Source: Eledone cirrhosa
Lineage: Eukaryota
Reading direction: 5' to 3'
Length of the DNA stretch: 64,000 nt
NCBI GenBank assembly: GCA_964016885.1
Contig: OZ024747.1
Span: 57,970,001-58,034,000 of the forward strand
Shown: positions 4,923-61,364 of the stretch, piece after piece
How the letters are laid out: the number at the start of each line of letters is the position of its first letter
Position numbering within the stretch: position 1 is the first letter of the stretch
Notes under the pieces: model-generated
Seen by the model: only the letters and a program-made list of their open reading frames with translations
Databases searched by the model: none
Told to the model about the DNA's origin: nothing
Program-made: the position numbers and the translations under genes

Positions 4923-5005
4923 TGCTCTCTGATGATCTTCACTTTTCCATGAGAGGTCCCATGGATTTCTAATGTTTTGTGAAGTGAAACCGATCGGTAA
5001 AATCA
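4923..5005 (+). ncRNA. Type I hammerhead ribozyme fold (stem I partly decayed)
   Basis: CTGATGA (4929-35), stem II cttcac/gtgaag with an internal tccatg/catgga hairpin, GAAA (4986-89), palindromic stem III ACCGATCGGT, GUA cleavage triplet. Confidence 0.7.
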
Positions 5006-5086
5006 CAGGAGTAGGTAAATATTTAAATTATATTTTTTAATTTATTTTTAAAAAATGTTTGAATGTTGCTTGTTCTGCTTATCTCA

Positions 5087-5127
<41 letters not shown>

Positions 5128-5504
5128 TATATAAGTATGTACACGTACATACATATATGTGTACAGACGTCCAGTAGTATGTATATATACATACATGCAT
5201 ACATATCGAGTGGGTTAATCGGCCGGGTGCACCAAAAACGATAAACGGAAAAAATGAAACGAAATTTCATTTCCCACTCTTAGTACGGCTGTTACTTAAA
5301 TATAAGTATGTACACGTACATATATATATGGATACAGACGTACAGTAGTATGTATATATATATACATACATGCACACATATATATATGTACGTATGGATT
5401 CACCGAACCTTTATTATAATGCTCGGTGTGTTCGTAAACAAACATCCCGTATTAAGCCGTAGTGTCTAGCAACCATCGTTGCTCGTTTGTTCAACACTGA
5501 CAAA

Positions 5505-5555
5505 GGAACGCTGTACTAGTTTCAAGCTTATTAGTTATCGTCAGCAACGTATACC
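5505..5555 (-). ncRNA. Minimal type I hammerhead ribozyme, unit 1
   Basis: Minus strand: acgttg CTGACGA taac-taataa-gctt GAAA CTAG TA cagcgt. Stem I acgttg/cagcgt, palindromic stem III ACTAGT, GUA triplet. Confidence 0.8.
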
Positions 5556-5924
5556 TTCCTCCCAGATTGTTGAACGTATATACTTACCTTATGCATATTA
5601 ACGGCTGAGTAGCCCAATCTGCATATCGATTGGGTTAATCGGCCGGGTGCACCGAAAACGATAACGGAAAAAATGAAACGAAATTTCATTTCCCACTCTT
5701 AGTACGGCTGTTACTTAAATATAAGTATGTATACGTACATACATATATGTATACAGGCGTACAGTAGTATGTATATATATATACACATACATGCACACAT
5801 ATATATATGTACGTATGGATTCACCGAACATTTATTATAATGCTCGGTGTGTTTGTAAACAAACATCCGTATTAAGCCGTAGTGTCTAGCAACCATCGTT
5901 GCTCGTTTGTTCAACACTGACAAA

Positions 5925-5975
5925 GGAACGCTGTACTAGTTTCAAGCTTATTAGCTATCGTCAGCAACGTATACC
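5925..5975 (-). ncRNA. Minimal type I hammerhead ribozyme, unit 2
   Basis: Minus strand: acgttg CTGACGA t-agc-taataa-gct-t GAAA CTAG TA cagcgt; all three stems intact. Confidence 0.85.
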
Positions 5976-6193
5976 TTCCTGCCAGATTGTTGAACGTATA
6001 TACTTACCTTTTGCATATTAACGGCTGAGTAGCCCAATCTGCATATCGAGTGGGTTAATCGGCCGGGTGCACCGAAAACGATAAACGGAATTTCGTTTCA
6101 TTTTTTCCGTACACATATATATATATATACACACACATATAAACATATACAGACATATACATATACAGACACACATATATTATATATATATTT

Positions 6194-6234
<41 letters not shown>

Positions 6235-6367
6235 TGGCATAGATACAAATTTATAAACACACTAGTCTGCAAATACATATATACACAAACACACACACAC
6301 ACGCATATATATAAGTACATATACATACATATATACATACACATACACACACATACATTTATAAATG

Positions 6368-7492: not shown

Positions 7493-7684
7493 TTGTTATA
7501 CTTTGGGAAGGTCATGTTGCCAATAAGAAACACACGCACCTATGCTTTCACTCCAATTTATTATAACTTAAAAAATATTAAGAAACATTTCTGAAAAATG
7601 TTTTTAATTTATAATAAATTGGAGTCCAAGCAACTGGTGCGTGTGTTTCCTATTGGCAACATGACCCTCCCAAAGTATAACAAT
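7492..7684. repeat. Imperfect inverted repeat (about 75-bp arms) next to a microsatellite
   Basis: ttgttatactttgggaaggtcatgttgccaata... pairs with ...tattggcaacatgaccctcccaaagtataacaa. Confidence 0.85.
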
Positions 7685-7984: not shown

Positions 7985-8196
7985 GTGTGGAGATCGTCAA
8001 ATCGTGCCGAGGAAACAATGCCTCCATTAATCTTTCCAATTGCCAATACTATCTACCAGTTACAAATCCAGGCAGAAGGGGCAACGTGAAATAAAGTTTC
8101 TTGCTCAAGGATATAACGCATTGCCCGGTCCGGGAATCGAACACCCAGCCCCACGATTGCGAATCCAATTATCTAACCACTCAGTCACGCGCTTTC
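7985..8196 (-). mobile_element. tRNA-derived SINE, family B
   Basis: Minus strand has an A box (gtgactgagtggttag), a B box (gttcgattccc) and the ccttgagcaagaaacttt core. Homologous to 20685-20905, 34905-35061 and 48205-48360. Confidence 0.75.
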
Positions 8197-10240
8197 ATTT
8201 TCCTTCTTAATGACTGTATTATTACAAGTAAATGCATAATGCCTGCCCACAAAATCGTTAAATGATGTATTTTTCAAATGAGTAGGCCGAATGGAAGGGT
8301 TGGTGTCTAAACATTAGGAGGACATTCTAGAGTGAATATGTTTAGCAGCTGTTAATTTTCTGTTTTACCATTTATAGCTAACTGTTTAGTTAAAGAGAAT
8401 CCCATCGTTCGTTTCTGTAGATGTGCTGTGTGAAGGATCAGGAAGTAGGTGTTTTGTGTATAGAAGAAACAACTTGAGAGATATAATGTTGTACATCATA
8501 GTTCAGAGCTCAGTCAACTTATCGCCTGTTGGAATTGATCGAAAAATAGAAATCTAATAATATGAAAACAAAGAGAAATGATGACGCTATATATAAGCTA
8601 CAAGAATAAGTTTTCAATACGCATCTAGTGAAGTGTTGCGTTGGAGAATTTTATGGAGTTGATATACATTATATTGTAGAGGCACTAGAAGGATTGGCTT
8701 TAATGTACGAAGCCAGCTACCTTGAATTCTATATTATACATGAATGCATTTTTTTCTTATTTTCTGACGGTTGTCTTGACTCATGATATATAATCTATAA
8801 TACAAACTATATATATGTGCATATCCGTTTTAAAAGTACGCAGCATGAACTAATCAATAGCTTTTATACAAATTTGTTTATTATTACACTCAATTGCATT
8901 TAGTTTTCAATTGAAACTAAACTAAATGTAATTCAGTGCATATATACGTAACATATATCAGGATCTCTCTACAACTACACATAGAACTGTATGCACGATA
9001 AATTATTTATTTCTACATGTATACGGCATCGTTTATGACAATAAAATATATTGAATTATGATAGCTTAAAAGAAGAAAAAATAAGTATCATTAACAAATC
9101 AATAATTTTCTGCTCAGTTTCATACTATCTGCCTGGATTTATATTTAATTATAAATTTCTATAGCTAAAGATGAATATTTTTTCAGACTACAAAACAAAT
9201 AAGAATTTATGTTATTTTAATAAAGAAAATGTTATTTACTGATTTACTCTTTTCAACGTTTCTATTTATAGCGACGTAAGTATTCCAGATTCTTCTAATA
9301 TTGGAAAGTAGCATGAGGTCGTTCGGTGTCTGTATTGATAGCAAACTAATTAAACCCTATTTTGAAAGAGATCGATAAATGCTAGAAATAACACGCTTCC
9401 ACTCGTAAGGAAGACGATGCAGCCTACTCGAGATGAACATTTCTTTCATAAGCATCTGATAGAGGTTAAAACGAAATGTTTCATTTATTTCTGCGTTTCT
9501 TTCTCTCTATAACGGAGTGTTACTGTTAAGTACATTGGGAAGGTTGATGTATTCGTGATAATTTAATTTGCAGAATCACTTATGGGGTGGGAGATATATT
9601 TTCTCGTTGTTGACTACAACCTGATAAATGAAACGCACTCTTAAGGAATGTAGGATGGTTTGAAGAGAGTGAAGTAAATTTAAACACAATTCTTAACCAT
9701 CACTGAAGAATAACAAAGTAGATACATGCAAACAAAAAATATCCTGTGGTATTCTGCTTCACCACGGTTTACGATTTAAGTTAGTAAAAAAAACGAACAA
9801 ATTATTGGGTTTAAATAAAATCAATGAATGTTTTTTTAATAAAGAATTAATTCAACATATTTATCTACTTAAATACTAAATAATTTCTCACTGTTTGTTT
9901 TCTTGATTTCTTGTTGAAATCAATCCGGTACCGCAATACGTGTTCTCGGATTAATGCTTTAAGCCAGTACATTATTAAATGGTTAAAACAATATTCAAGC
10001 TTACACAACACTGAAAACAATTAAAGGTATATCTCGGGTTTATATATGATATTAATTAGTTAGAATGAACATTGGGGTTTAGGGTTCTTTGTCATATCTA
10101 TTGTGTACAAATTAAGAGACCTTCTAATGTTCGGTATCTTGATCTCTGTCACGTTGACAAATGTTTATCAATTTCGATTTCTCTTGTTTTCATTGTTACT
10201 GTTGGTGGGATTTCGCCATCGTAGTTATTGTTAGCTGGAA

Positions 10241-12119: not shown

Positions 12120-12271
12120 TATAATTAGTTACAACAGTGACATATAGGGGTACTTAAGTTTCGTTGGGTTATAAACATTAACTCATTCAACCTTCTTTTT
12201 ATAACAGGATCAACGATTTAGGTTGTATAACCCAACAAAACTTAATTACCTGTATATGTCACTATTTTAAC

Positions 12272-12280
<9 letters not shown>
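12120..12280. repeat. Inverted repeat containing the 3' half of an HHR (GAAA-CTTAAG-TA)
   Basis: Arms ~12120-12172 and ~12225-12280. The minus-strand arm reads cccaac GAAA CTTAAG TA cccc; the CUGANGA core is decayed. Confidence 0.65.
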
Positions 12281-12345
<65 letters not shown>

Positions 12346-12645
12346 TTAGAAAGTGAGGTTTTTTTTACAAAATGAAAAATAACCGAGGTGTCCTACACGA
12401 GTGAAAGTATAAAGAAAAAGAGATGAAATCGAAAATGCAACTGAAGTCTTATTTTTTTTAAAAATATATATATTTATTTGGTTCCTTTACCGGTTTCGCA
12501 GTTCTTCTGCTTTTCAACTGCTTTTCAACTGCTTTTCTTCTGCTTTTCAACTGCGAAACCGGTAAAGGAACCAAATAAATATATATATTTAAAAAAAAAA
12601 TAAGACTTCAGTTGCATTTTCGATTTCATCTCTTTTTCTTTATAT
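12346..12645. mobile_element. Fold-back fragment of the Penelope 3' pLTR with a truncated HHR, inside (TA)n
   Basis: 12346-12517 is the reverse complement of 18658-18830, and 12551-12645 is the same sequence in the plus orientation. The junction contains repeated ctgcttttcaa. Confidence 0.85.
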
Positions 12646-13448: not shown

Positions 13449-14035
13449 GTGTTATGGCTATGGTGGACCAGGTTAAAAGGGCTGAGGTCAGACACCTTTC
13501 TCTCCGGCCAGCAACTGATTCGTTTTTTCAAATATCATTTTGGAAGAAGAATCAGGTTGGAGAGAGAGGTGCTGTACCCCAGCAAATTTTATAAAAGGTG
13601 GGTGAATGTGGCAAAGATGGCCCGAGTAGTTGGGCCTTCTCTCTATATAAGCCTGTAGGTTGATGAAAAAGAGGAAGAGAGGAAGGGAGTACTCACTCTT
13701 GGTGCTCCTGGAGATGAGGGTTGTACATTTTTTCGGGGTGTGTACAACCCCTTTGTAACCCCCGCCCCCTATTAGGGATTTCAATTGTTATTTGTTATTG
13801 TATTAATAGTTTTATTTTCATATACCTGTATGTAAACTCCCCATTTGTATTTGTCCCCTTCTTTTGTGCCCTTGTGGCCAATAAAGAAATTTATTTATCT
13901 ATCTATCTATCTATCTATTTATCTATCTATCTATGTATCATTTGTGATAATATTTTACACGTTTTTATTGTATGTAAACTTCCCCCTTTGTATTTGTCCC
14001 CTTCTTTTGTGCCCCTGTGGCTAATAAAGAAATAT
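13448..14035 (+). mobile_element. 5'-truncated L1/Tx1 3' fragment in (CTAT)n, with a duplicated 3' terminus
   Basis: WWTRLKGLRSDTFLSGQQLIRFFKYH...LEREVL...RWVNVAKMARV aligns to the C-terminus at 2471-2818. The 3' end (tgtaaact...aataaagaaat) occurs at both ~13890 and ~14030. Confidence 0.85.
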
Positions 14036-17538: not shown

Positions 17539-18830
17539 TAACAATACAACAGAACAAATGCGAATAAATAAGGAAAATATGTTTATTCAAAAATATAGAC
17601 CAACATTAAATAAGGTTTAATATACATTATGTCAACACCACAATATGACATACACACACACACACATAACACCTTCTACTTTAGAAAATAAAAACCCGAA
17701 CTAAATAAACCTTAACATACGTTTGCACTGGCAATACAACAGCAAACACGAAAAAGTAAGGAAAATATGTTCATTCAAAAATATTCCTACTAAAGGAATC
17801 ACTTTCCTACACACACACATACACACACACACAATATATATATATATATATATATATATTCTCTTCATCTTAACATGCTAACCATACTCCCACACACATA
17901 ACACCCATACACACACATAACAACCCCCACACCTACAACTCCCTCCCCATTTCTACTAATAGAACCACTTTCCTACACACACATATATATATACACACAC
18001 ACAAAATATATATTCTCTCCATCTTAACATACTCGCACACACACACATAATACCCATATACACACACACACAACTCCCTCCCTCATCTCTACTAATAGAA
18101 TCATCTTCCAATACACACATACACACACACACACACAAGCACACAAATAAACATACATATCTTCAGTCTCAATAGAAAATCTGAACTCTGACACCCCGGC
18201 GAGCTGGCCATATTCACTGAACCAGAACATTTCTCCCAATCCCTTTTCTCTTGACCACTATCTCTCCATTGTCATAACATTCACTATAAAGACTACAGAA
18301 TAGTTTTCCAAATAAGGGCGCAAAAATGTAATGAAAACTTGTTCACGTGACAGCCAAATTTCATTTATAACCAACCAAAAAAAAAGCCTTCGTGAGCCTC
18401 CTTTTTTCAAGTAAAAAGAAATTCAAACACTCATATATGAAAAAACAACCTGTGACAACCCCCCCCCCCCACTTTCTTATTTGAAGAACTATTGTAACGC
18501 GAACTGGCGCGAAATTTATTATAATTATTGACAAACCAATCAAATTACTTCTCGAAAAACCTGGCATTTCGAGCCACTTTTTCCATATAAAACAAGTAAC
18601 ATTCTGAGACCAACCAGATGTGAGAAAAACCACAGACCCTCCATCTCAACTCACCTTTTGAAAAGCAGAAGAACTGCGAAACCGGTAAAGGAACCAAATA
18701 AATATATATATTTAAAAAAAAAATAAGACTTCAGTTGCATTTTCGATTTCATCTCTTTTTCTTTATACTTTTACTCGTGTAGGACACCTCGGTTATTTTT
18801 CATTTTGTAAAAAAAAACCTTACTTTCTAA
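17539..18830 (+). mobile_element. Penelope-like element 3' fragment (end of GIY-YIG, 3' UTR, pLTR with HHR)
   Basis: Matches 46160-47090 (KENMFIQKYRP.LN..*). Ends with the HHR at 18654-18691, then TA. TA-flanked on both sides. Confidence 0.85.
18654..18691 (+). ncRNA. Minimal type I hammerhead ribozyme with U3:A8 core
   Basis: cctt TTGAAAA GCAG-aagaa-CTGC GAAA CCGG TA aagg: perfect stems I and II, palindromic stem III ACCGGT, GUA triplet. Confidence 0.85.
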
Positions 18831-19393
18831 TATATATATATATAAATGAAATAGAAGGAAAGGAAATTTCATTTCTCACTCTTAGTACGGCAGTTACTTA
18901 AAAACTATATATATATATACATAAAGGAACGATCGACATTCGTCAAATCAAACCGAGGAAACAGTGCTTTCATTGGTCTTTCCAATTGCTAATACTATCT
19001 ATCGGTCGCAACTCCAGGTAGAATATATATATATGGGTCACATATTCAGGAAAATGTTTCTGAAGGTTATAGCCAGACAACATTGTTTTCAGGTAAATAA
19101 CACGATTACATTTTAAATTTTTGTTGACAGGAGATATTTGATATCACGTTGGAAATTACTTTGTAAATCGTACATAATAGCTGATGTAATCAATATAAAA
19201 CTACAATTGTAAATCTATAATGTGATCTCGAAAAGATACAGTTGTGATTTATATGTTAGTCTTGTCGTATTAGAGGAGGGCTCTGGTGTGAGAGATGAAT
19301 TACTTTCTACTATCAATCCCACAAAAGTAAATGAGGACCGTTAAACGTGCCATTCACTAATCCCCTTTTCACACTGATTAATTCACACTCATG

Positions 19394-20684: not shown

Positions 20685-20903
20685 GTGAAGGTGCGTGCTT
20701 GAGTGGTAATAGAATTGTTTTCACAATCGTGAAGTTGTAAGATTGATTTCTGGACCGAATGATGCGTTATGTCCTTGAACAAGACACTTTATTTCGCATT
20801 GTTCCTTCTACCTGGAGATGCGACCGACAGATAGTATTAGCAATTGGAAAAACGAACGGAAACATTGTTTCCTCGGTCCGATTTGACGAAAGTCGATCGA
20901 CTA

Positions 20904-29691: not shown

Positions 29692-30690
29692 GAGAAGGAA
29701 AACTCTAAAATAACACCTGCAACCCTGATGGTATCCAATGATGTTGACTTGTTCTTCTTTTTGGGAAATATCATCTTGGTTAAGAGAGTGGGACTGGCTT
29801 TGTGCAGTGCCTTTGCTCACTATAAAATCTTCACGGCACAGGCATTGCTTTATATCTGGAGATCTCTCTGCACTTGTCGTCACATGGTACCATGGGCCCA
29901 GCACTATGTGTCAATAATTGTCACAAGTGTAGTGTTTGTACCAGAGTTTTCAAGTCACTGGCTGGACTAAAAAGTCACACTCGTTCAGCGCATCGGTAGG
30001 GGTTCTCCTACGTGGATATAAAGTAGTGGCCGTACTCGAAAACGAGTTGGCAGCCACCATGTGTGTAATATATGTCAGATCACCAGTTGGTGCTATTGGT
30101 AACATGTATCCCAGTGCAACCTGTCCCATGGTCGAGTCGTTGGCGACTAAACTGGCAACCCCACCAAGGTTTCTTGGTGAGGAGGGTGACTTTGGACATC
30201 CTGCAGGACTAAAAACAAAACCTGTCAAAGGGAAAAGGAGCTCTTAAGAATCAATGGCCATCCAAAATCATCGGGAGAGATGACCCATTAGCCTTTGTCA
30301 AGGCAGAATTCTAGGAGAAGGAAAACTCTGATATAACTCCTGCAACCCTGATGGTATCCAATGATGTTGACTTGTTCTTCTTTTTGGTAAATATCATCTT
30401 GGTTAAGAGAGTGAGACTGGCTTTGTGCAGTGCCTTTGCTCACTATAAAATCTTCACGGCACAGGCATTGCTTTATATCTGCAGATCTCTCTGCACTTGT
30501 CGTCACATGGTACCATGGGCTCATCACTATGTGTCAGCAATTGTCACAAGTGTAGTGTTTGTACCAGAGTTTTCAAGTCGCTGGCTGGACTAAAAAGTCA
30601 CACTCGTTCAGCGCATCGGTAGGGGTTCTCCTACATGGATATAAAGTAATGGCCGTACTCGAAAACGAGTTGGCAGCCACCATGTGTGTA
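29692..30690 (+). repeat. 1.6-unit tandem of a 623-bp non-coding retroelement-like sequence (RTE 5'-UTR/SINE-like) within (TATG)n
   Basis: 29692-30067 repeats at 30315-30690 (offset 623); flanked by TATG microsatellite. Confidence 0.8.
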
Positions 30691-31150
30691 AATATGTATG
30701 TAAGTGTGTAAATATGTATGTATGTATGAGTCTGTGTTTATATGTATGCATGCATGTTTGTATATATGTATGTATGTGTGTGCGTGTGTGTATGCATGTA
30801 TATATGTACGTGTGTGTGTATATGTATGTATGTGTGTATGTATGCACAGGGATGGATGTGTTAAGGCGTTCACTTTACAAGCTCGGTTTCGCTTTTAATG
30901 CTTGGCACCTTGGCCCTGTATTTTCAAGCATTGCCTCTATGGCCAATGCTAATAGGAAAGTGCGCTGAATCTCATTAAACATGTACGCACGTACGCATGT
31001 ATGTATGTATGTATGTATGTATGTATGTATGTATGTATGTATGTATGTATGTATGTATGTATGTATGTATGTATTATGTATCCATGTATGTATGCATGTA
31101 TGTATGCATGTATATATGCATGTATGTATGCATGCGTGTATGCATGCATG

Positions 31151-33473: not shown

Positions 33474-33596
<123 letters not shown>

Positions 33597-34462: not shown

Positions 34463-34722
34463 CAGGAAATGTCAATTTTTGAGGGACATCGTATATATAT
34501 ATACAACATTAATAAATGGAAACTATATTTATAAACCATATTTATTTCATTATATATATTTCAAGGATACCAAGTTAAATATATATAATGAAATAAATAT
34601 GGTTTATAAATATAGTTTCCATTTATTAATATTGTATATCTACTCCAAATATTTGTCGAGTGCTTTATATCAGTTATAATAATATTTGCTTGTTGTATCC
34701 CAACAATTTCAATTAGAACTTT

Positions 34723-34762
<40 letters not shown>

Positions 34763-34773
34763 TGCAAAAGTTC

Positions 34774-35061
34774 TAGAGCAACGTGAAATAAAGTGTCTTG
34801 CTCAAGGACATAACGCATCGCCCGGTCTAGGAATCGAACTCACAACCTCACGATTGCGAATCCAGTTCTCTAACCACTCAGCCACACGCCTTCATATATA
34901 TATAGGCGTGTGGCTGTGTGGTTAGAGAACTAGATTCGCAATCGTGAGGTTGTGAGTTCGATTCCTAGACCGGGCGATGCGTTATGTCCTTGAGCAAGAC
35001 ACTTTATTTCACGTTGCTCTATCTACCTGGAATTGCGACCGACAGATAGTATTAGCAATTA
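34774..35061. mobile_element. Head-to-head fold-back of SINE family B around a short TA tract
   Basis: 34774-34890 is a near-perfect reverse complement of 34905-35021. Confidence 0.85.
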
Positions 35062-35222
35062 TTTTTCTTTCTCTATAACCCAACGGCTTATTTTAAAAAT
35101 AAAAATATCCAATACTAATAATAATATAAGTAAACAACTCCACTATCCGGGAGCTTCCAACAGTAATGGTTGCATTTTTTTAAGGGTAGGTCAATATTTA
35201 TTCATAAAACTGATCTATATTA

Positions 35223-35287
35223 TATTTTGTCTGATGAAAGCACACCATAATTTAACTTGGTGTCCTTGAAATATGTATAATGAAATA
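35223..35287 (+). ncRNA. Type I hammerhead ribozyme (family E)
   Basis: tattttgt CTGATGA aagcacacca-taatttaact-tggtgtcctt GAAA tatgta TA atgaaata; AUA triplet. Related fragments at 34505-34727 and 35472-35562. Confidence 0.75.
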
Positions 35288-35414
35288 AATATGGTTTTAT
35301 AAATATAGTTTCCATTTGTTAATATCGTATATTTACTCCAAATACTTGTTGAGTACTTTATATCAGTTATAAAAATATTTGCTTGTTGTATCTCAACAAT
35401 TTAAATAGAACTTT

Positions 35415-35458
<44 letters not shown>

Positions 35459-35976: not shown

Positions 35977-36162
35977 CGAAGGAAATGTGGTACGGAACCA
36001 GATGGACCATAAGGCACCAAAGTACTCAATACTTAGGGTAGTAGAGTGGGTAATAGGAACGAGTAGGACTCCGACGGCTGAGCTCAAGCCGTTTCGACGG
36101 CTAGTCCAGAATTAGCCGTCGAAACGGCTTGAGCTCAGTTGTCGCGGTCCTACTCGTTCCTA
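35975..36162. mobile_element. Family D pLTR end with a terminal fold-back
   Basis: taacgaaggaaatgtggta... then a hairpin (36055-36162) turning in HHR stem II; TA-flanked. Confidence 0.8.
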
Positions 36163-36638
36163 TATATATATATATATATATATGTGGTGGGTGGATGCGT
36201 GTGTAATAATATGCTTATGTAATTTTGAAAACGATGATTCAGCAATTTCCACATTAACATATACATAGATATTTCAAATATAGAGAAAAAAATAATCTTA
36301 AGCTACACAACAAACATTTAACTTTACCAAATTCATGTGTTCGATATGATAAACATTATGCATTTCTGTACTTACCATGAATATAACAAAATTACATTAT
36401 ACTAGGAATGCCGGAAGCTACATCGAATTTCAATCGTCTTAAATATAGATGCGTATTGCAGGAGAGAAGCCGTTCCTTATTTTGTGTTTATATTATGCTC
36501 TTGGAAAGATTCTTCAAAATAGCAAACGTTTCATTTCCATTTTATATATTACATTCATTAAATTGCTATTATCAAAAGTAGTTCGTATGTGCCTTTATAT
36601 ATACTACCGTATGCATGACGTTATATATATATATATGT

Positions 36639-36932: not shown

Positions 36933-37063
36933 ACGTAGGTCCCGGGTTGAGTCGGGGATAACCACAGTTAGTAAGGTACTCAATACATGGCAGAGTAACA
37001 TTTTTTTATTTTATAGAAGGAGCTTCTACAGGACTCTTGTAGTCCTGTAGAAGCTCCTTCTAT

Positions 37064-37129
<66 letters not shown>

Positions 37130-44315: not shown

Positions 44316-44318
<3 letters not shown>

Positions 44319-44454
44319 CGAAGGTAGTGTGGTAAGGAACCAGGTGGACCATAATGCACCAGAGTGAGTACGCAATACTTAAGGTAGAAGGAAAATGTTC
44401 AAGACCCCGACGGCAGAGCTCAAGCCGTTTCGACGTCTATTTCTGGGGGCCCAC
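44316..44454 (-). mobile_element. Family D pLTR end (3' half of HHR), inverted upstream of the Penelope ORF
   Basis: Homologous to 33595-33730 and 35975-36102; abuts (TA)n. Confidence 0.8.
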
Positions 44455-47660
<3,206 letters not shown>

Positions 47661-48169: not shown

Positions 48170-48360
48170 TATATATATATATCGACAGTCGATCGACTTT
48201 CGTAGAGGCGCGTGGCTGAGTGGTTAGAGAACTGGATTCACAATCGTGAGATTGGGAGTTCGATTCCCGAACCGTTGCTCCTTCTACCTGGAGTTGCGAC
48301 GGATAGATAGTATTAGCAATTGGAAATACCAACGGAAACATTGTTTCTTCGGTCCGATTT
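48170..48360 (+). mobile_element. SINE family B preceded by an inverted copy of its own 3' end
   Basis: tatatcgacagtcgatcgactttcgt (reverse complement of the 20886-20905-type tail) is joined to the head aggcgcgtggctgagtggttag...gttcgattccc. Confidence 0.7.
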
Positions 48361-53130: not shown

Positions 53131-53175
53131 ATCAATGATATTAATAAATGGAAACTATATTTATAAAACCATATT

Positions 53176-53236
53176 TATTCTATTATATTTATTTCAAGGG
53201 TACCAACTCTTTGGTACGCCCTCATCAGATAAAATA
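53176..53236 (-). ncRNA. Type I hammerhead ribozyme (family E), left arm
   Basis: Minus strand: tattttat CTGATGA gggcgtacc-aaagagtt-ggtaccctt GAAA taaata TA atagaata. Confidence 0.75.
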
Positions 53237-53356
53237 ACAGAGCTTGTTTTATAAATATTGACATATCCAGGAATGAGACCTTAACGGTTCAAGTTTTAGC
53301 TGGATAGTAAAACTTGAACCGTTAAGGATATGTCAATATTTATAAAACAAGCTCTG

Positions 53357-53417
53357 TATTTTATCTGATGAGAGTGTACCAAAGTTTTGGTACCCTTGAA
53401 ATACATATAATAGAATA
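53357..53417 (+). ncRNA. Type I hammerhead ribozyme (family E), right arm of the fold-back at 53139-53455
   Basis: tattttat CTGATGA gagtgtacc-aaagtttt-ggtaccctt GAAA tacata TA atagaata. Confidence 0.78.
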
Positions 53418-53537
53418 AATTTGGTTTTATAAATATAGTTTCCATTTATTAATATCATTAATATCATTGTCGAGTGCTTCGAATCTGTTATAAATGTATA
53501 TATTTGTTGAATTACCAACAAATTAAATATCCCTTTG

Positions 53538-53689
<152 letters not shown>

Positions 53690-59013: not shown

Positions 59014-59152
59014 TAACGAAGGAAATGTGGTAAGGAACCAGGTGGACCATAACGCACCAAAGTACTCAATACTTGGGGTAGTAGAGTGGGTAATAGGAAC
59101 CAGTAAGACCCCAACGGCTTGAGCTCAGCTGTCGGGGTCTTACTGGTTCCTA
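59014..59152. mobile_element. Family D pLTR end with a terminal fold-back
   Basis: taggaaccagtaagacccc...ggggtcttactggttccta hairpin turning in HHR stem III. Further copies at 51650-51820, 59997-60125 and 63553-63734. Confidence 0.8.
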
Positions 59153-59188
59153 TATATAAATATATATATATATATAAGTATGGATGGA

Positions 59189-61061: not shown

Positions 61062-61154
61062 GGAACATTGGAAGGTAATATCCGTAGTGGTAGAGCACTC
61101 AGTCGTTGGGACGAGTTAGATATAAGTGTTTACTCAACAGTTAGTTCACCATAT

Positions 61155-61192
61155 CGAGAACAATTGTTTCACCATAGCGGTTCTTCAGCTCG
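61155..61192 (-). ncRNA. Minimal type I hammerhead ribozyme
   Basis: Minus strand: cgag CTGAAGA acc-gctat-ggt GAAA CAATTG TT ctcg; palindromic stem III ACAATTGT. Confidence 0.82.
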
Positions 61193-61228
61193 TAATGGAC
61201 ATTGTTATACGGAAAACCATGTCCATTA

Positions 61229-61266
61229 CGAGATGAAGATCCGCTAAGGTGAAACAATTGTTCTCG
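61229..61266 (+). ncRNA. Inverted partner HHR copy (C3 mutated to A)
   Basis: cgag ATGAAGA tcc-gctaa-ggt GAAA CAATTG TT ctcg; part of the inverted repeat 61132-61289. Confidence 0.65.
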
Positions 61267-61299
61267 ATATGGTGAACTAACTGTTGAGTTACCATTTCT

Positions 61300-61364
<65 letters not shown>

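Follow-up and report, generated by a model that had tools for sequence, protein, structure and literature searches.

A short tandem repeat bearing hammerhead ribozyme motifs lies between two microsatellites in the genome of the cephalopod Eledone cirrhosa (GCA_964016885.1, contig OZ024747.1), which raises the question of what kind of element it is and how it came to be inserted there. The initial annotation had likened it to a non-LTR retrozyme. This class has been published for corals, mussels, insects, fish, and amphibians, and its animal members have units of 150–450 bp and RNAs of 170–400 nt (PMC7229834). Prior papers, citing co-occurrence and similarity to pseudo-LTRs, propose a Penelope-like partner for these elements while leaving the mechanism open, and animal retrozymes show no motif that points to a partner (PMC7761336). 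In a partial literature search that excluded the supplements of PMC7229834 and bioRxiv 10.64898/2026.07.22.740005, we found neither a cephalopod retrozyme nor this family described, nor any account of tails and inversions at the ends of retrozymes. The window that we analysed is a stretch of 64,000 nucleotides (57,970,001 to 58,034,000 of the contig), and all positions below are counted from its first letter.

Architecture of the array

Tandem Repeats Finder (TRF) and self-alignment resolve the array into two full units and further partial units (Table 1), as the initial annotation had described. The exact 420-nt period that had been claimed holds as a net value; locally the offset varies between 419 and 421, and the two full units, identical at 407 of 422 aligned columns, are separated by 11 substitutions and 4 gap columns. 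Because the units differ at 15 columns, one sequence assembled twice is ruled out. The left partial unit matches 5300–5381 and 5719–5792 at 89–91% by blastn, and alignment to 5300–5381 and 5719–5802 gives 73 of 82 and 73 of 84 identical columns. It is joined to the first full unit at CATAT microhomology, where about 240 nt of the unit, hammerhead included, are absent; alignment rules out a GT-AG intron at this junction on both strands. The longest ATG-initiated ORF of the unit, read as a line or as a circle, has 61 codons, which bears out the lack of coding capacity reported earlier, and no ORF for reverse transcriptase (RT) plus GIY-YIG lies inside or beside 5128–6110.

Both full units carry a C at 5619/6039 where 95–100% of the family depth in related samples has T, and they appear for that reason to derive from one template. 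The left partial unit and its two counterpart copies have 3, 2, and 2 private substitutions, respectively, and the array seems to have decayed by about 2% per unit since its insertion. The surrounding window is AT-rich, with 120 tandem-repeat rows (mostly microsatellites) and broken retroelement frames, and ARAGORN calls no tRNA genes within it.

Table 1 Features of the array and of a related fragment in the window
Feature	Position	Strand	Basis	Remarks
(TA)n microsatellite, left flank	5087–5133		TRF	likely target; last 5 bases also fit the unit
Partial unit (sense 3′ end, TA/CA-rich hairpin segment)	5129–5206	−	blastn	
CATAT microhomology at internal deletion junction	5202–5206			
Tandem array	5202–6090		TRF	period 420, 2.1 copies, 96% matches
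Full unit 1 (TRF phase)	5202–5621	−	TRF and self-alignment	
Type I hammerhead with intact core and broken helix II (5535)	5508–5550	−		predicted cut 5514/5513
Predicted 420-nt monomer between both cut sites	5514–5933	−		37.4% GC; 69% paired as circle
Full unit 2 (TRF phase)	5622–6041	−	TRF and self-alignment	
Candidate Penelope-type tail	5664–5719, also 5245–5299	−		between two putative RT starts
Long TA/CA-rich hairpin	5721–5810	−		25-bp outer stem in fold; just upstream (sense) of left-end position
Type I hammerhead, intact	5928–5970	−		predicted cut 5934/5933
Partial third unit, cut off at sense 5′ side	6042–6089	−		
Inverted 21-nt piece	6090–6110	+		own 3′ end faces the flank
TA/CA microsatellite, right flank	6111–6229		TRF	
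Dispersed family fragment of about 60 bp, between two TA runs	18842–18902	−		matches 5661–5719

A canonical type I hammerhead in each full unit

Scanning the window for the motif on both strands gives six matches; two of them fall within the array, on the minus strand at 5964 and 5544. The hammerhead that had been assigned to every unit is thus present in both full units and missing from the left partial unit, where the ribozyme region has been deleted. In both copies the order of the motif is helix I (6 bp, one U-G), CUGACGA, helix II, GAAA, CUAG, and UA, with CUGACGA starting at 5964 and 5544 and followed by GAAACUAGUA, and the two predicted cuts are spaced 420 nt apart. The intact copy combines a 4-bp helix II over a U·U pair with a helix III of 1–2 bp formed by ACUAGU, the palindromic stem III that the initial annotation had read as ACTAGT. 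Helix I is extended by a 6-nt bulge and a distal helix, and the U·U pair occupies position 10.1–11.1, in place of the usual G-C. Helix II of the 5544 copy has an A·C mismatch, caused by a G-to-A change at 5535; the energy of the helix II hairpin is 0.0 kcal/mol in this copy versus −2.5 kcal/mol in the intact one, and the helix II pair probabilities are 0.00–0.21 versus 0.90–1.00.

The motif had been called minimal, a label that its helices contradict. Canonical animal hammerheads have a helix I of 6 bp, a helix II of 4 bp, and a helix III of 1–2 bp with a palindromic loop of 2–4 nt, whereas minimal hammerheads have a helix II of 7–8 bp, a helix I of 4–5 bp, little or no helix III, an extra base after position 9, and G10.1-C11.1 (PMC4209133). 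Since the 6-bp helix I, the 4-bp helix II, and the palindromic helix III fit the canonical definition in the cited part of that paper, the array motif is by its sequence a canonical metazoan type I hammerhead and not the minimal form of Penelope-like elements.

Dinucleotide shuffling of the unit, repeated 20,000 times, never produces even a loose hammerhead on either strand. Rfam returns no hammerhead at gathering score over the window and none among 104 matches (E up to 10) over 5000–6300, and with Rfam silent our call rests on the motif scan and on conservation. The mir-297-type Rfam matches correspond to the TA-rich hairpin, are all under the gathering score, and were set aside. Hammerhead pattern scans gave no matches in viral contigs, metagenome contigs, or prokaryote genomes.

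The perfect splice-donor word AGGTAAGT occurs at 6009 and 5589 (6001–6009 and 5581–5589, minus strand), its only two instances in the window, about 40 nt upstream of each hammerhead; a perfect donor arises in 144 of 20,000 shuffles. We dropped it as a family feature, as the commonest loose-end consensus at 5997 has no GT. The hammerhead strand of the unit contains no Pol III A or B box, and A-like and B-like matches on the opposite strand stand in the wrong order within 130 nt or in the right order about 300 nt apart.

Folding and predicted monomer release

The predicted 420-nt monomer folds at −143 kcal/mol (z −9.30; 0 of 100 shuffles). By segment, z is −4.8 for 5822–6089, from which the TA-rich hairpin is excluded, −3.6 for the hairpin stretch 5717–5821, and −0.4 for 5622–5716.

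The palindromic helix III makes dimeric cleavage between adjacent units plausible as a structural model. For the 983-nt transcript, the free ensemble has an energy of −358.8 kcal/mol, compared to −342.6 kcal/mol with the dimer forced and −340.2 kcal/mol with two monomers forced; the forced dimer is favoured by 2.4 kcal/mol, the crossed dimer pairs have a probability of 0.0 in the free ensemble, and the active folds lie 8–19 kcal/mol above it, in a program that ignores the tertiary energy of the hammerhead core and by which dimer cleavage is neither shown nor excluded. In vitro, one of nine predicted dimers cleaved (bioRxiv 10.64898/2026.07.22.740005). Whichever topology applies, one of the two predicted cuts would involve the broken helix II. 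Because both cuts are needed, this particular locus is doubtful as a source of the 420-nt monomer, even if such release is true of the family; the aged copy probably releases monomer poorly.

Family members in sequencing runs of related samples

A run search with the array stretch listed 24 runs, of which 17 held part of it, none held half of its words, and none was on record as RNA. Four runs (X1, X4, X6, and X23) were mapped on 5600–6019 at 80% likeness, with 5721–5823 left out, and the runs with small shares were set aside as evidence. Contigs that map to the unit number 7,654 in X1 (1,948 of them at 99% or more), 2 in X4, and 45 in X6, and 45,243 of 12,467,656 RAD reads in X23 do so (0.36%). 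The family is abundant, by counts that come from related samples and not from the genome of the window.

Variation listed for these runs spares the constrained part of the ribozyme: none of the 36 variant sites listed (40 of 65 variant rows) falls among 26 constrained hammerhead positions. The four listed variants inside the motif are at position 7, in loop II, and at 5931 and 5967, which form the two sides of one helix I pair and vary at 65% and 64% in the raw reads of X23, with a less even match in the contig depth of X6 (79% vs 40%). Record 10 of X4, a 335-nt contig, has 10 differences over 5906–5997, all outside the 26 constrained positions, and turns the U-G of the helix I pair into G-U. 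The P values for this pattern (0.038 for the listed sites over 317 scored positions, 0.029 for record 10) are both modest, and mapping at 80% likeness favours conserved stretches. The same contig carries 5676–5720, joined to the hammerhead region by 111 nt of its own sequence, and because both are present in it, a diverged subfamily retains the ribozyme together with this segment.

The most common continuation upstream of 5997 leads back into the unit. The 6019-to-5600 joint is present in all four runs; we dropped it as proof of a tandem arrangement, as what it shows is continuity of the unit. Depth over 5684–5697 exceeds that over 5628–5669 by 4.8-fold in X1, 4.6-fold in X6, and 3.0-fold in X23, a step in summed depth rather than copy number that coincides in X23 with an AATT site. 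AATT is a common RAD enzyme site. It occurs at 5682, and at 5616 once the family T at 5619 is counted; the X23 read-end pile-ups at 5616/5618 and 5682/5685 sit on it and were ruled out as element ends. Opposite-strand joints in X23 (1–5 starts each) fit inversions and may be library chimeras, and were excluded from the evidence.

Ends of the array and marks of insertion

The left microsatellite directly abuts the element, at a distance of 0. The inverted terminus that had been reported at 6089–6110 exists, with corrected limits: the exact piece is 6090–6110, the reverse complement of 5664–5684 and 5245–5265, and it sits at the sense 5′ end of the array. The dispersed fragment resembles the unit at 86.9% over 61 nt (E 1.7e-14). 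All four ends, those of the array and those of this fragment, lie at most 5 nt from a (TA)5+ run. Across the window, 11.7% of positions are no more than 10 nt from such a run. A 13-nt repeat, in which 6113–6125 repeats 5121–5133, is a weak candidate for a target-site duplication and was discounted for its low complexity.

In unit coordinates, the hammerhead-sense 3′ end of the array corresponds to 5719–5724, the inverted piece ends at the equivalent of 5664, and the dispersed fragment ends near that of 5670. From these three ends in one window and the depth step, we infer two RT start sites 49–55 nt apart, which would bound a tail longer than the 30–40 bp reported for Penelope-like elements (PMC8557442). 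Neither end of the array coincides with a ribozyme cut, and both cut sites have been copied intact; for these reasons the template would have been an uncut multimer or a circle traversed more than two times, and the sequence fits either.

These features resemble the products of Penelope-like elements, which show 5′ truncation, partial tandems, adjacent inverted 5′-truncated copies, and (TA)n targets (PMC8557442). In vitro, a Penelope-like enzyme cuts both strands of AT-rich DNA and initiates reverse transcription internally on the RNA, at two positions that delimit the tail, with hammerhead cleavage not required (PMC11167929). Of such marks, which the initial annotation had not recognised as Penelope-type, the array has the inverted 5′-truncated piece and the microsatellite flanks. 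We tentatively suggest that this retrozyme family records its insertion, with two fixed end sites about 50 nt apart, head-to-head inversions, and TA microsatellites possibly representing a footprint of Penelope-type internal priming.

Other mobile sequences in the window

Pieces of RT plus GIY-YIG are found in 44474–46188 (RVT_1, E 4.6e-05, below the Pfam cut-off; GIY-YIG, E 1.7e-06), with a C-x4-C-x2-C motif between them similar to the linker described for the Neptune and Nematis clades (PMC8557442). On this evidence, 44318–46441 is a decayed Penelope-like element that follows a (TA)n run and has several frameshifts. A further copy of its 3′ part lies at 17541–17808, and the piece 44318–44446 belongs to a family with window copies at 33596, 35976, 37187, 51645, 59016, and 59999. 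No sequence shared between the element at 44474–46200 and the 420-nt unit was found, nor, within the window, a pseudo-LTR homologous to the unit or an autonomous partner of the array.

Two further sets of hammerhead-like motifs are present. A second family, at 35182–35417, 53137–53540, and 34480–34726, has one motif on the plus strand at 35231 and a head-to-head pair at 53365 (+) and 53228 (−); its copies end at a fixed sequence before (TA)n. Its helix II is longer, and it likely consists of pseudo-LTR fragments. A 180-bp palindrome (89%) at 61121–61300 includes a third hammerhead-like motif at 61188 (−), with the helix III word ACAATTGT.

Comparison of the window with itself shows head-to-head inverted insertions at 7493–7683, 12120–12279, 12408–12644, 29692–30697, 34774–35021, 36053–36163, 37008–37068, and 59093–59153, the largest with 384-bp arms at 96%. 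With so many in one window, this style of insertion appears to be common in the genome. At 34774–35021, two copies of a tRNA-like short repeat face each other as a palindrome across a TA spacer (97% over 248 bp); additional copies of the repeat lie at 7994–8197, 20686–20889, and 48203–48360, with no tRNA called by ARAGORN. A broken non-LTR retrotransposon occupies 360–2842 (RVT_1, E 1.1e-12), and its 3′ end recurs at 13459–13679.

Alternative origins of the array

It seems unlikely to us that the units derive from the pseudo-LTRs of an autonomous Penelope-like element, left as a partial, 5′-truncated remnant tandem with no independent non-autonomous family behind them. Pseudo-LTRs do bear hammerheads of type I, in some cases with a helix III that is small and palindromic, and mostly survive as truncated dispersed copies (PMC4209133); the X1 depth over 5628–5669, about a quarter of the hammerhead depth, leaves room for copies that continue into other sequence. 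Against this stand the absence of an ORF between the two hammerheads and beside the array, the predominant return to the unit upstream of 5997, the mere 111 nt by which X4 record 10 joins tail to hammerhead, and the canonical rather than minimal motif. Equally improbable, in our judgement, is a single insertion of little over one unit followed by local duplication through unequal crossover, as in a minisatellite, in which no multimeric or circular RNA would have been copied. Unequal crossover from a solo pseudo-LTR has been proposed as a route (bioRxiv 10.64898/2026.07.22.740005), the rare C shared by the units is just as compatible with local duplication, and the microhomology deletion indicates that DNA-level rearrangement is possible at the locus. 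The candidate tail segment, however, occurs between the units but is missing from the left end, which implies that more than one unit length was inserted from the outset, and the private substitutions of the left partial unit and its counterparts better fit an origin at a single time than stepwise growth.

An ordinary satellite or an assembly artefact with a chance resemblance to a hammerhead could explain the silence of Rfam and the U·U pair at position 10.1–11.1, where G-C is usual, but we regard it as very improbable: the shuffles yield no hammerhead, the listed family variation spares the core, and a U·U pair at the base of helix II also occurs in HHR_Amex2, which cleaves (PMC7229834).

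Discussion

The array is probably an aged, non-coding tandem of 420-base units belonging to a non-LTR retrozyme. The RT and endonuclease of a Penelope-like element likely placed it, already multimeric, in a TA microsatellite. The likeness to retrozymes drawn by the initial annotation is upheld by the tandem non-coding unit, the type I core in two consecutive units, a GC content of 37%, the self-paired monomer with its z of −9.3, the abundance of the family in related samples, and a Penelope-like element in the same window; the incomplete second ribozyme is the one departure among the retrozyme features examined from sequence. Animal non-LTR retrozymes share this combination, with GC under 45%, high copy number, and Penelope-like elements alongside (PMC7229834). 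The weak palindromic helix III recalls the axolotl HHR_Amex1, and the U·U pair below helix II is reminiscent of HHR_Amex2; of the two axolotl families, one has a palindromic tetraloop and the other the U·U pair, and both work more efficiently as dimers (PMC7229834). Most invertebrate retrozyme hammerheads, in contrast, are efficient as monomers (PMC7229834), whereas that of the array has a weak helix III. At 420 nt, the unit lies at the top of the published range for units and above that for RNAs, and inverted ends, tails, and microsatellite targets are not described in the cited excerpts of PMC7229834.

In outline the array also fits the screen of Li, Clavereau, and Pollet (2026; bioRxiv 10.64898/2026.07.22.740005), with a TRF tandem, a type I motif in two consecutive units, a length within the surveyed range of 51–972 bp, and an RT plus GIY-YIG element alongside. 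The support in that survey comes from co-occurrence and from pseudo-LTR homology in frogs, whereas that of the array comes from insertion anatomy; in the main text of the survey, the word "tail" occurs 0 times and "inverted" once, in a reference. Like the pseudo-LTRs and tails of Penelope-like elements, the array combines a hammerhead with sense 5′ truncation, an adjacent inverted 5′-truncated piece, an AT-rich target, ends downstream of the ribozyme instead of at its cut site, and a candidate tail at one end only (PMC8557442, PMC11167929, and PMC4209133). Unlike them, it has no ORF, a canonical instead of minimal hammerhead, and a candidate tail of about 50 nt compared to 30–40. MRC1 and other non-autonomous Chlamys elements likewise form Penelope-type, head-to-tail multicopy insertions; in the cited part of PMC8557442, however, their clade has no canonical hammerheads and generally shares 3′ sequence with an autonomous partner, whereas the array has a canonical hammerhead and no partner match in the window.

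Under the favoured reading, intact family members would be transcribed on the hammerhead strand, and adjacent ribozymes would pair via the palindromic helix III and cut out the 420-nt monomer, which a host ligase may then circularise (PMC7229834). A Penelope-like enzyme would nick AT-rich DNA and begin reverse transcription inside the RNA at one or the other edge of the ~50-nt candidate tail, which places the start about 210–270 nt downstream of the cut; its template, a circle or an uncut multimer, would be copied over more than two unit lengths.

As a member of its class, this non-LTR retrozyme is ordinary; the pair of ends is what adds value. At this locus a retrozyme bears insertion marks of the Penelope type, and they point to a specific region for priming, testable with the existing in vitro Penelope assay, in which the TA/CA hairpin and the tail, if the tentative footprint is real, would be the RNA element for distinguishing a circular template from an uncut multimer. 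The ends would then also count as direct structural evidence for the mobilisation of retrozymes in trans by a Penelope-like enzyme.
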